59,373 nt of DNA from an uncultured Gammaproteobacteria bacterium (GTDB lineage Bacteria > Patescibacteriota > Patescibacteriia > Patescibacteriales > UBA12465). The translations under genes and the position numbers were made by a program. Below, in pieces: positions 31,240 to 35,037 of the stretch (position 1 is the stretch's first letter; the number at the start of each line of letters is the position of its first letter). The notes beneath the pieces were generated by a model. That model did not search any database, was not told the origin of the DNA, and saw only the letters and a list, made by a program, of their open reading frames with translations. Location: NCBI GenBank assembly GCA_964652745.1, contig CAZZBQ010000001.1, forward strand, positions 16,029 to 75,401, in the 5' to 3' direction.

Positions 31240-34200
31240 ATGGCTAATCAAGAATTTAATAAAATGAGGGCGGTTGTCGTTCCTTTATTGGCGGCTGTTT
31301 TGTTGCTTGCCTCAATCCTGTTCTTGCCTGGCAAAATAGTCCAAGCACAAACTTCATCAGAAGGTGACGCTATTGGTATTCGCGTTATTCCCAATCCTAA
31401 CCATTACAGTGTTTATCGTTGGTATCAAAGCCAGGGATTTTCTGGCGCGCCTCAAACTTTGACAGTTGACGGCTATGAGGCTTTGCGTGATGGACGCACT
31501 GTGTATATTAATGCCGCTCATGTTAACCAAGAGCAGAAAGTTATTTATACTAATATTTATTTGATTTCTTATAACCAGGACTCTAGTAGTTTAACTACTG
31601 ATATTCTAGGCCAGATAATTTCCCATTGGAAGTTTAATGATAATCTAGCCGATCAAGTTTCAACTTGTTCTATTTCTGTTACTAAATGTGACACAGATTC
31701 TGATTGTGCTAGTAATCAAGCTTGTTCTACTGCTAACAGTACTTGTCAGCTAAAAGAAGCTAAGAGCTGCGTCGTTGACAGTGATTGCCCAGCTGGATTT
31801 TTCTGTGGCAGCTTAAAGGCCATGGTTGTTCGTGATTTAAAAAGAGTTGGTAAAATTGAAGAAGTAAGAGAAGCGCTGGCCAGATATAAAGAAGTGAACG
31901 GTTCTTATCCTTTATTATCAGCCGGAACTTATCTTCCAGGAAAAACTACTTCTTTGTGGCCAAGTTGGAATGAGGTTTTTTTGCCAGCGATTGGTGTAAA
32001 AAATTCTGTAGTTGATCCAATAAACAGATTTGGCGCTTGTCCTGGGTATGACAATAAGACTTGCTGGAATCCAGAAACTAAACAATTTGCCGCTGGCTCC
32101 GGCCCAGCTTTAACGTTGCCAGTTAATAGTTATGCTTTAGCTTATACTTCAAATCAAGCCGGTTCCTCTTATAGTTTGTGCGCTGTTATGGAAAGCCGGG
32201 ATTCTTCTAATCCGGTTTTAGGTTATCGCTTAGAACCAGGAGTTAATGATGATAACTGTGTGACCGCAACTGGAATAATGGCGGCCGGAAATTTAAATAA
32301 TACTGCGCCGCGAATAGTTGACCTAGCTCTCAAGGGAGTAGCCGGTAAAGAGTTTAATGGGTTTGCCCGCGCCGTGGATAATGAAGGAGACCCAATTACA
32401 TGGTCAATTTCTACTGGTGGAAATTGGTCTAGTTGGTCAGCCGCGCCTATTTTAAAAGGAGTAAGTGATATTAATCAAAAAAAGATATATGCGGTTAAAT
32501 CAGGTAATGCTGGGACCTACCCAATTACTTTAACTGTTACCGATAGCAAGGGTAGCAGCAGTGCTACTACCAGTAATATTATTATTGAATCTTCTTCAAC
32601 TTTTGGTCAGGCGGATGAATATACTTATCGTCTTGATCCAACCATTCCTTTTAGTTTTAGTTTTTATGTTTCCGGAGAAACTTCGGTGCCAAATTATTCT
32701 TTAAGTTTAGTCTCTGGCATTGATGCTTTAAGACTTCCCGGCATAGAACGTTCTGTTGTTTCTGATGGTGTCAATCGTCACAAGATTACCTATCAGGGGA
32801 TTATTAGTACTTCGGCGTCCACTATTTTTACTGAAGACAAAGAATCAATTTACAGATTAACGGTGAATGGTGTTTCCAGTAATTTTATTATCCGCATTAA
32901 AATGAATCCGCCGACTCTTGATTTTAATTGCGAAACACAATCACGTTTAAATCATACTTATAGCTGTCGTCTTGGTATAAATAAACAAGGTAATCACACG
33001 ATTTCTTATTTTGCTGAAGGAGCTTTACCTGTAGGACTAAGTATAAAAGAAGATCCAATTGCAGAACCAGGAGTATTTTACTTATCTGGACAGACCACCG
33101 CTTTACATACTGGTCAAGAAGTAAGAATTAAGGCGGTTAACGAATATGGCAATCCAACAGTTAAGAGCTTCGTACTTAGAGTTAATGATTATTGCGGTGA
33201 CGGCATCGCCCAGGAGCCTAATATGGAAGGGCGCGGTGGTATTTTTAATAATGGTTATGAGGCCTGTGATGGCATGAGTAATGTCGCAACCACGGCAGCT
33301 GGTAGTAGCTATAAAATCCAATATGCTTGTAATACTGGAGTAGGCGAAGAATCGCCTTACCCGATAAATAGCAATAATTATTGTGTCTTTAAATCTCCGC
33401 TCGAAGGTGGTGGTTATTGTGGTGACTTATATTGCCAGGCAACTTATGAAAATATTAGTACATGCCCATACGATTGTGATCCGAATTATTTTGGTGATGC
33501 TCCATCTTTACCAGAAGGGACATTAGGTGATGGTAATGATACCGGAGCTTGCTCAGGAGCAAATTCTTGTCCGGCTGGCTATGATTGTGTTGGTAATACC
33601 TGTCAACTTAAATGTTGGGATAAAGTAGAAACCGCTGTTTCGGTTCTAGTTAAAACAGGCGACGCAACAAAGAATGGGGTAGAATATGAAAATTATTATT
33701 ATAAAAATTTAACTTGGACTCACGAACGGATAACGTTTAATAGCGGTTTTTTGTCTCCTGTTGGTGCCACACAATCTGATGTTAAAATTTGTACCCAAAC
33801 TAATGGTGATGATTTCTTAAAATTATCTGATGCTGCGAGTCAGTGCCAGGGCTATAATGTAATCAGAATAGATAATCCGGCTTGCGGAGATTTAGAAGTT
33901 AATAAAACCCATTGTCCGCTAGGAGCTAATGATTATGTGAGCCCATACACCAAGGTTCCTGGCTCTGATAGATGTAAGGCGGGCACCTTTAATTGGAATG
34001 ATCGTCGTCAGGCGACCTGTTATGGCAATCGTACAGTTAAGCGCTGTGTATCAAATAAATGCCGGATAACTTTAGGAAGTACTGTTGAAGATGGTTATAT
34101 CAACGCTAGCGGGCAATGCGTAAAGCCAGTAGCTTGTGTTCAAGGGGTTTGCGCTACGGGTTATACCTGTCAGTCAGGTCTTTGTATTCCAACGCCTTTA

Positions 34201-35037
34201 AGTCCAACCGTGTCTCCAACTCCTGCTACTTGTCCAGCGGGTAAATACTTATCGTCTGGAGTTTGTCTTACTTGTGCTGCTGGTACTTATAAAACTGGAA
34301 CCAATTCGGCAACAAGCTGCACACTATGTCCTAGTAATAGTTATTGTGCTACAGGTGCTACTGTGCCAACTAGTTGTCCAGCTGGTTATACTTCCAGCGC
34401 TGGGTCTGATACTTCAAGTGATTGCGTCGCTCCGTCTTCTGGTGGTAGCATAGGAGGAACCTGTATACCAATGTGTCCAACGACTACTGGTTATTGTGGT
34501 AGTGATGGTTGTGGAGGAACTTGCCCCTGTGAAACCGGGTTAACTTGTAAGAGCGCTTCAGAACCTATTTGTATCTGTAATTCAGAATGTGCTTATTCGC
34601 CTGAAACGAGTAATTCAACACATCATTATAATTGCGCTCAGATAAATAGCTATTGTTCCCCTAATGGCGGTTGGTGCGGTGATGGTATTAGACAGGCTAG
34701 TATATATAATCAAAGCGGGTATGCTATTCCTGGAGAAGAATGTGATAATGGCTCTAGTAACATTACTGTTGGCGTAGAGCCTTTGCCTAAATATTATGGT
34801 ACTAAAACATATTGTGATAAGAATTGTAATTTAGTTACCTATAAACATTATTGTGGTGATGGCACTTGTGATATTGGATTGATCGGCTCTACAGAATATT
34901 GCGGTCAATTGTGTGCTAGTTCTAGCGACACCTTTAATGATTGTTCTTGTAATAACGGTTGTAGTTGTTTAAAGGGAAAAATTTGTTCTGAAGGTCTTTG
35001 TGTTTCTCCTCCGCCCTTGCAAGTAATACCAGAATAA
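31240..35037 (+). CDS. Giant surface protein 3: N-terminal anchor/signal, internal pilin-head-like domain, Ig-like domain and several kinds of Cys-rich repeats
   Basis: 1265 aa, 8 nt after the upstream stop. RDLKRVGKIEEVREALARYKEVNGSYP...DPINRF...YSLCAVMES resembles pilin globular domains. It also has CGDG...E(E/A)CD repeats and CPAG..Y...G..C..C repeats. About 74 Cys by hand count. Confidence 0.85.
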   Translation: MANQEFNKMRAVVVPLLAAVLLLASILFLPGKIVQAQTSSEGDAIGIRVIPNPNHYSVYRWYQSQGFSGAPQTLTVDGYEALRDGRTVYINAAHVNQEQKVIYTNIYLISYNQDSSSLTTDILGQIISHWKFNDNLADQVSTCSISVTKCDTDSDCASNQACSTANSTCQLKEAKSCVVDSDCPAGFFCGSLKAMVVRDLKRVGKIEEVREALARYKEVNGSYPLLSAGTYLPGKTTSLWPSWNEVFLPAIGVKNSVVDPINRFGACPGYDNKTCWNPETKQFAAGSGPALTLPVNSYALAYTSNQAGSSYSLCAVMESRDSSNPVLGYRLEPGVNDDNCVTATGIMAAGNLNNTAPRIVDLALKGVAGKEFNGFARAVDNEGDPITWSISTGGNWSSWSAAPILKGVSDINQKKIYAVKSGNAGTYPITLTVTDSKGSSSATTSNIIIESSSTFGQADEYTYRLDPTIPFSFSFYVSGETSVPNYSLSLVSGIDALRLPGIERSVVSDGVNRHKITYQGIISTSASTIFTEDKESIYRLTVNGVSSNFIIRIKMNPPTLDFNCETQSRLNHTYSCRLGINKQGNHTISYFAEGALPVGLSIKEDPIAEPGVFYLSGQTTALHTGQEVRIKAVNEYGNPTVKSFVLRVNDYCGDGIAQEPNMEGRGGIFNNGYEACDGMSNVATTAAGSSYKIQYACNTGVGEESPYPINSNNYCVFKSPLEGGGYCGDLYCQATYENISTCPYDCDPNYFGDAPSLPEGTLGDGNDTGACSGANSCPAGYDCVGNTCQLKCWDKVETAVSVLVKTGDATKNGVEYENYYYKNLTWTHERITFNSGFLSPVGATQSDVKICTQTNGDDFLKLSDAASQCQGYNVIRIDNPACGDLEVNKTHCPLGANDYVSPYTKVPGSDRCKAGTFNWNDRRQATCYGNRTVKRCVSNKCRITLGSTVEDGYINASGQCVKPVACVQGVCATGYTCQSGLCIPTPLSPTVSPTPATCPAGKYLSSGVCLTCAAGTYKTGTNSATSCTLCPSNSYCATGATVPTSCPAGYTSSAGSDTSSDCVAPSSGGSIGGTCIPMCPTTTGYCGSDGCGGTCPCETGLTCKSASEPICICNSECAYSPETSNSTHHYNCAQINSYCSPNGGWCGDGIRQASIYNQSGYAIPGEECDNGSSNITVGVEPLPKYYGTKTYCDKNCNLVTYKHYCGDGTCDIGLIGSTEYCGQLCASSSDTFNDCSCNNGCSCLKGKICSEGLCVSPPPLQVIPE

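Follow-up and report, generated by a model that had tools for sequence, protein, structure and literature searches.

A Sec-secreted modular protein of Patescibacteria with an internal pilin-like segment, probably the distal part, encoded by a gene of its own, of a class-wide giant surface protein

Type IV pilins and the pseudopilins of type II secretion systems (T2SS), which belong to the type 4 filament superfamily, are among the described systems closest to a protein of 1265 amino acids (aa) encoded in the genome of a Falkowbacteria-like Patescibacterium (610 kb, 43 contigs, 87% complete). The stretch analyzed, here called the window, comprises 59,373 nucleotides (nt) of contig CAZZBQ010000001.1 (positions 16,029 to 75,401). 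With type IV pilins and pseudopilins, including the genome's own pilins (P0121 family, N_methyl PF07963), the 1265-aa protein shares the motif RDxKRxx(D/K)xxxxxxALxxYxxxxGxYP in aa 197-269 and, in its AlphaFold2 (AF2) model, a long helix followed by beta strands. Unlike type IV pilins, it lacks a class III signal peptide, the G|FTLIE motif and a hydrophobic alpha1-N, and the pilin-head-like part is located 190 residues into the chain and, in the fused giant relatives described below, about 2,200 residues in.

In the modular type IV pilin PilB of Streptococcus sanguinis, a von Willebrand factor A (vWA) module is grafted on a pilin module (PMC8179133). The 1265-aa protein likewise combines pilin-type with adhesion-type modules, and one fused relative (L011) ends in VWA; unlike the pilin module of modular pilins, which sits complete at the N terminus and becomes part of the pilus, the one found here is internal and has no polymerization helix. 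The protein is also related to the Patescibacteria giants with a VirB2/TrbC-type T4SS_pilin hairpin (PF18895), being homologous to the distal part of their single-chain versions and encoded in the same conserved operon, but it has no hairpin and carries its own cleavable signal peptide. Its Cys-rich tail contains the spacing CxxCxxGTY...CxxCPxNxYC of Ephrin_rec_like/GCC2_GCC3 (PF07699) and TNFR-type repeats over the whole model, unlike PF07699 arrays as a single copy below the Pfam cut-off. The pattern CGDG ... E-x-C-D-x-G ... C-x3-C of the DUF4215 or Myxococcus repeat is present in two units, which differ from canonical DUF4215, found in the orthologous giants, in having 10-13 extra residues between CGDG and ExCD. 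No description of the protein's family or architecture turned up in the literature searched.

The 1265-aa protein belongs to an uncharacterized and widespread family of surface proteins that puts a pilin part to unusual use. On balance, it is probably a Sec-secreted, disulfide-rich, modular surface protein, the separately encoded distal half of a giant nearly universal in its class, and would form the tip of an adhesin. The gene, its conserved N-terminal part and its upstream partner are as follows.

31240..35037, + strand: complete open reading frame (ORF; P0001) with ATG start and open frame, 1265 aa
31240..31347, + strand: Sec-type signal peptide, aa 1-36, with K/R n-region, 19-residue hydrophobic core and predicted cleavage VQA|Q
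31366..31644, + strand: N-domain, aa 43-135, the best-conserved part of the family
31666..31806, + strand: two small disulfide knots with 8 invariant Cys, aa 143-189, CxxDxDC pattern
31813..32259, + strand: pilin-head-like domain without alpha1-N, aa 192-340, a 29-residue helix at aa 192-220 (RDLKRVGKIEEVREALARYKEVNGSYP) and then beta strands
25445..31231, + strand: upstream partner gene, 1928 aa, with N-terminal VirB2-like T4SS_pilin hairpin (PF18895), TIG and Big_5 (Pfam), the probable proximal half of the ancestral giant

An earlier interpretation of this DNA made without database searches, here called the sequence-only reading, had reported an intact 1265-aa ORF, which was borne out, and all strings it quoted were located where it had put them: RDLKRVGK from aa 198 (nt 31831) onward, YSLCAVMES up to aa 319 (nt 32196), CPAGKYLSS...SDTSSDC over aa 998-1062 (nt 34231-34425), YCGDGIAQEP...YEACDG over aa 651-678, and WCGDGIRQAS...GEECDNG over aa 1145-1171. 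A homologue search with the protein gave 201 matches, and since more than 200 homologues were retrieved at E values down to 0, the ORF is a real gene. The homologues, none of them functionally named, all stem from metagenome bins of Patescibacteria or 'Candidatus Falkowbacteria'. Among the 119 homologues listed, aa ~30-750 were covered in all, aa 800-975 in about 38, and the part beyond aa 975 in 12-24. Whole-protein Pfam and NCBIfam scans returned only sub-threshold matches of immunoglobulin (Ig) type at aa 354-447. A role as an enzyme or toxin was also considered and dropped, as these databases gave no catalytic or toxin family.

In all 60 homologue N termini compared, an n-region, an h-region and an xAQ end were observed a few residues before 'DAIG(V/I)R(V/I)IPNPNHY'. 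Because these are classical Sec signal peptides, the 1265-aa protein is exported, as judged from its sequence, and the signal-peptide pattern indicates cleavage probably after VQA36. No membrane anchor or sortase signal was seen on inspection of the C-terminal sequence, and the PF18895 hairpin was not found in the protein. The sequence-only reading was also right that the prepilin leader and N-terminal helix of pilins are missing: neither an N_methyl match nor a prepilin leader was present, the N terminus being a Sec signal peptide, and ahead of the helix of aa 192-220 lie the Cys-rich knots of aa 143-189, not a hydrophobic alpha1-N.

The N-domain, in which most columns are at least 90% identical across 120 sequences, was modeled by AF2 with a predicted local distance difference test score (pLDDT) of ~90 and found no match in Pfam, PDB or Foldseek searches. 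Searched alone against the 1.84-billion library, it was retrieved at E<=1e-3 in 1262 cluster representatives, nearly always right behind a signal peptide. The protein holds 74 Cys, clustered at aa 143-189 and aa 652-1254. For the knots of aa 143-189 Pfam gave sub-threshold matches only (Dumpy DPY, Dickkopf_N), and in many other families these knots, which stand between the N-domain and the pilin-like head, are missing or replaced. In the AF2 model of aa 36-350, built from a 74-sequence alignment (pLDDT 84.6, predicted template modeling score [pTM] 0.84), the N-domain, both Cys knots and the helix with its strands are predicted to form one compact unit.

Of the 151 class genomes, 133 contained this module, aa 36-350, and these represent 126 of 137 genera. 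In a phylum sample of 401 genomes, 26 matched it, only 1 of them from another class. The ten best-scoring genomes outside the protein's own family carry the module inside open frames of 2,891-4,702 aa. Three such fused loci from other families of the class were compared (L011, 6884-16462; L012, 5003-13666; L013, 4271-14257). In their ORFs of 3192, 2887 and 3328 aa, respectively, residues 5 to ~2007 align to the 1928-aa protein and residues ~2057-2412 to aa 43-333 of the 1265-aa protein, homology to which starts only at aa 43. The N-terminal T4SS_pilin hairpin was above threshold in L012 and L013, and in L011 it was recognized only by BLAST to aa 2-131 of the 1928-aa protein. Stand-alone forms with a signal peptide were confined to the protein's own family and two genomes of the same order. 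Since single ORFs in three other families are collinear with the 1928-aa protein and then with aa 43-333, the simplest reading of the sequences is that the 1265-aa gene would be a fission product of an ancestral giant, cut at the N-domain boundary, whose distal part acquired a signal peptide. Between the stop of the 1928-aa gene and the start of the 1265-aa gene there is a gap of 8 nt, which would fit co-transcription of the two. The sequence-only reading had overlooked the class-wide giant protein and its split-off distal part.

The tails of the fused giants are variable, with VWA or CarboxypepD_reg domains. The von Willebrand factor A domain of L011 lies at the distal end of the locus (15569-16189, residues 2896-3102 of the 3192-aa ORF).

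Four ORFs in the genome carry a prepilin motif by regular expression, two of them canonical major type IV pilins. A hidden Markov model (HMM) of aa 190-335 from the family was run unfiltered over the 2773 six-frame ORFs of the genome, and these two canonical pilins were its best non-self matches (E 1.7e-3 and 2.1e-3), with an alignment of about 30 residues that pairs RDLKRVGKLEELKEALAKYKKANGKYP with ARDAKRIADVKQIQTALELYYNEAGEYP. When the family segment was compared by hhalign with a profile of 120 pilin homologues, a match over 63 columns was obtained (Prob 94.8%, P 5.4e-8) that places aa 197-269 on pilin residues 38-100 and takes in the loop and the first Cys; as negative controls, six further segments of the protein aligned to the same profile gave P>=0.1. 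P0121, the pilin used for comparison, is a genuine type IV pilin that matches Geobacter PilA, PilE, PilA and GspG of PDB through alpha1. Many columns of the pilin-head-like segment, and of the first CGDG unit, are invariant in the family alignment, and the AF2 secondary structure consists of the 29-residue helix at aa 192-220 followed by strands. These alignments support aa 197-269 as a homologue of the pilin alpha1-C and alpha-beta loop, that is, of the first half of the head, and the assignment of a complete head fold to aa 192-340 is putative. The earlier claim of an internal pilin-head domain thus stands for aa 197-269, on the HMM and the controlled hhalign comparison, but not for the C-terminal half, and it gained no Foldseek match. 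With the class III signal peptide and alpha1-N missing and the domain internal, neither prepilin-peptidase processing nor pilin-like polymerization is therefore expected; an anchorless pilin head would not polymerize into a pilus and would act instead as a structural or docking module.

In the proposed role, the conserved N-terminal module would keep the secreted protein on a surface structure built by its operon partners, the variable Cys-rich C-terminal modules would be the exposed end that binds ligands or hosts, and the protein would therefore act as the tip part of an adhesin. Behind the conserved module the chain changes from one lineage to another: the 1265-aa protein has Ig-like domains and a beta domain there, together with one Ephrin_rec_like unit and two DUF4215-like units, all three degenerate, and the adhesion-type tails of its relatives include VWA, CarboxypepD_reg, DUF4215, beta-helix, He_PIG and long Ephrin_rec_like arrays.

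Several observations weigh against this reading. Adhesion is suggested by the predicted architecture alone, and the direction of the event, fission and not fusion, rests on parsimony over the sampled genomes, not on a tree. In two genomes of the same order (L014, G473:C5; L015, G414:C3) the stand-alone form stands among unrelated genes, away from T4SS_pilin giants, and it may act independently of them. End-to-end re-docking of the two proteins was unsupported, as the C terminus of the 1928-aa protein shows 14-43% identity against ~50-60% elsewhere. For the pilin part, hhalign of the C-terminal half of the head alone against pilins was not significant (P 0.28), and the pilin fold of aa 192-340 found no structural match in Foldseek. 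Genome G414 also contains a second, shorter copy of the stand-alone form. The match 'Y.Y...SY.L.C', noticed by eye in the C-terminal half of the head, was dropped at this hhalign P value of 0.28.

A different emphasis would make the N-domain and the alpha1-N-less head a dedicated docking module onto a type IV pilus or onto a fiber or stub of VirB2-like hairpins, and thus the whole a hybrid organelle. Such a specialization would suit a module that is conserved above all other parts of the protein and is carried by nearly every genome of the class, mostly as a single copy. Across most of the class, however, it is internal to a protein that is already anchored, where docking would be needless. 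Type IV pilins are encoded in the genome, a prepilin peptidase gene lies 8 kb downstream, the operon linkage to two giants with VirB2 hairpins is kept and, after fission, the 1265-aa protein has no anchor of its own; against these stand the stand-alone forms away from the giants and the poorly conserved C terminus of the upstream 1928-aa protein. We regard a dedicated docking module as unlikely. That the N-domain and the anchorless pilin head re-attach the secreted arm, after fission, to a type IV pilus or to a VirB2-like-hairpin filament or stub is put forward as a quite speculative step, at long odds.

The likeness to pilins could also be convergent or due to chance, with aa 197-225 an amphipathic helix ending in YP within an unrelated fold. 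This would agree with an HMM match of only ~30 residues, with the lack of significance of the rest of the head by itself, and with the outcome of the structural and profile searches. Pfam and NCBIfam segment scans gave no match for aa 193-345, the PDB sequence-profile search with the pilin-like segment gave nothing at E<=10, and Foldseek with the 315-residue multidomain model of the N-terminal module found no pilin in PDB (best E 0.12) and, in PDB as in BFVD, no match below E 0.02, the top ones being unrelated folds (Bet v 1-like, SciW). The structure prediction and Foldseek search proposed in the sequence-only reading thus gave no significant match for either AF2 model. Chance is nonetheless very improbable as an explanation: the only two canonical pilins of the genome were the two best non-self matches among 2773 six-frame ORFs, the hhalign alignment extends over 63 columns with loop and first Cys at P 5e-8 where the six control segments stayed at P>=0.1, and the helix-then-strands topology of the AF2 model fits a pilin head.

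Beyond the module, the 1265-aa protein is composed of the following parts, among which the units quoted in the sequence-only reading are found.

32287..33183, + strand: Ig-like stalk, aa 350-648, probably three domains of Ig/PKD/He_PIG type
33190..33477, + strand: Cys-rich unit 1, aa 651-746, YCGDGIAQ-[13-aa insert]-EACDG ... GGGYCGDLYC ... CPYDC
33574..34191, + strand: beta-rich, Cys-containing domain of unassigned kind, aa ~779-984, AF2 pLDDT mostly >90
34231..34425, + strand: single degenerate Ephrin_rec_like (GCC2_GCC3-type) unit, aa 998-1062, PF07699 sub-threshold
34672..34839, + strand: Cys-rich unit 2, aa 1145-1200, WCGDGIRQ-[insert]-GEECDNG...YCDKNCNLVT, DUF4215-like motif
34846..35001, + strand: C-terminal Cys-rich end, aa 1203-1254, HYCGDGTCD..., common only to the five closest homologues

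The isolated stalk segment scored just below the cut-offs (in parentheses) of He_PIG PF05345 (23.4 bits; 24), PKD PF00801 (22.3; 23.5) and Big_9 PF17963 (23.0; 23.6). Collagenase PKD domains were its best PDB sequence matches, a profile of the whole family gave in PDB only PKD-like matches, located in this Ig region, and PF05345 is annotated in many homologues. The stalk is missing from the fused giants, in which CGDG units directly follow the pilin-like domain.

Cys-rich unit 1 is the last segment common to all family members and contains invariant columns, with low AF2 confidence (pLDDT 37-60). An ad hoc HMM of canonical CGDG units gave 12.5 bits for unit 2 (aa 1164-1198) and ~2-3 bits for unit 1. 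PF13948 (DUF4215; cut-off 27 bits) and TIGR02232 had no match at E<=10 in the protein segments and none anywhere in the genome. The two CGDG units escape these models because 10-13 residues are inserted between CGDG and ExCD. In the orthologue P0007, the CGDG...ECDNGN unit of the tail (VCGDGVKAEQEECDNGN...) scored 27.1 bits with PF13948 against the cut-off of 27, and the tail of P0008 scored 14.5. Canonical DUF4215 was above the cut-off in 62 of the 151 genomes of the class, often inside orthologous giant ORFs. The upstream 1928-aa protein has no CG[DN]G motif, and the matching part of the fused giants has canonical DUF4215 units, e.g., CGNGVLEPGEDCDDGNATAGDGC. The earlier assignment of Myxococcus-type repeats is therefore weak, with the CGDG...ExCDxG motif present in both units but no PF13948 or TIGR02232 match.

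The AF2 model of aa 640-1265 had a mean pLDDT of 67.6, with the CGDG and Ephrin-like units at low confidence. The beta domain of aa 779-984, covered by 38 of the 119 homologues, about a third, was not matched in Pfam, PDB or Foldseek. For the segment aa 995-1070, PF07699 gave 19.8 bits (E 6.8e-4) over the whole model (1-48/48), below the cut-off of 23.1, and 20.5 bits at window positions 34240-34377 in the six-frame genome scan; it was not matched when the whole protein was scanned. With the Ephrin_rec_like unit as query, phmmer retrieved P0022 (5e-13, 3 repeats) and P0024 (3.5e-5, 5 repeats), relatives whose tails are real Ephrin_rec_like arrays (56.8 bits in four stretches and 43.8 bits in six, respectively). 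As it matches several of these repeats, aa 998-1062 is a genuine but degenerate single copy. Foldseek of the C-terminal model against PDB returned nothing below E 0.02, the leading matches being the EphA4 ectodomain, DcR3, RANK and TNFR2. What had been taken from the letters for ephrin-receptor-like repeats thus holds as one full-length unit, homologous to the arrays of P0022 and P0024, but a single copy that stays below the Pfam cut-off. A featureless low-complexity Cys tail, which the sequence-only reading had named as a result that would refute it, was not found, as the units align in register with those of relatives. The three domain labels of that reading hold in falling order, from the pilin head through the Ephrin-like unit to the Myxococcus repeat.

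PF07699 was above the cut-off in 1 of the 151 class genomes, 2 of the 401 phylum genomes and none of 14 control genomes, and within the family the repeat is confined to the closest relatives and two array-bearing lineages. So rare and patchy a distribution fits sporadic acquisition or rapid turnover and is uninformative on a eukaryotic donor. Acquisition of the unit from a eukaryote by inter-domain transfer, which would also explain this rarity and its restriction within the family, appears doubtful in the extreme, for no donor came to light, the 48 residues of a Cys repeat hold scant phylogenetic signal, the copy in the 1265-aa protein is degenerate and sub-threshold, and exchange among bacteria or quick turnover of tail modules accounts for the rarity equally well.

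The window has a G+C content of ~37-40% and its + strand is gene-dense. Upstream of the 1265-aa gene, proteins of 887 and 1928 aa are encoded, each with a T4SS_pilin hairpin at the N terminus plus Ig-like domains; downstream, a 94-aa ORF is followed by two TSP3-repeat proteins, and the set is flanked by rel, clpP and secDF. This gene order (two T4SS_pilin giants, the 1265-aa gene, an ORF of ~100 aa and TSP3 proteins) is kept in Falkowbacteria contigs, with orthologues 41-49% identical. The 94-aa ORF (window 35079-35363) had no Pfam match, and an ORF of 100-106 aa occupies the same spot in all syntenic contigs examined. At window positions 40804-43903, a 777-aa Wzy_C/PglL-like protein of O-antigen-ligase type with TPR is directly followed by a prepilin peptidase (A24), a pairing also kept in syntenic Falkowbacteria contigs. 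Pilin O-glycosyltransferases are among the enzymes of the Wzy_C family, so the pilins or the Ser/Thr-rich surface proteins could carry glycans.

Patescibacteria that have been cultivated grow attached to other microbes, and for most lineages we know of no described attachment mechanism. The gene set treated here is found in about nine of ten genomes of one large class and is nearly absent outside it, and its conserved base with a fast-changing tip is the pattern expected of a structure for host contact. It offers a clear case of a giant gene split in which the distal part gained its own secretion signal, and of a pilin head that serves as an ordinary domain, its polymerization helix missing. 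The function of the 1265-aa protein is putative, and its interest lies in the cell-surface biology of Patescibacteria: if the secreted arm is indeed re-attached to a pilus or hairpin filament, it would be part of an undescribed composite surface organelle, put together from components of two pilus systems and used to contact host cells.

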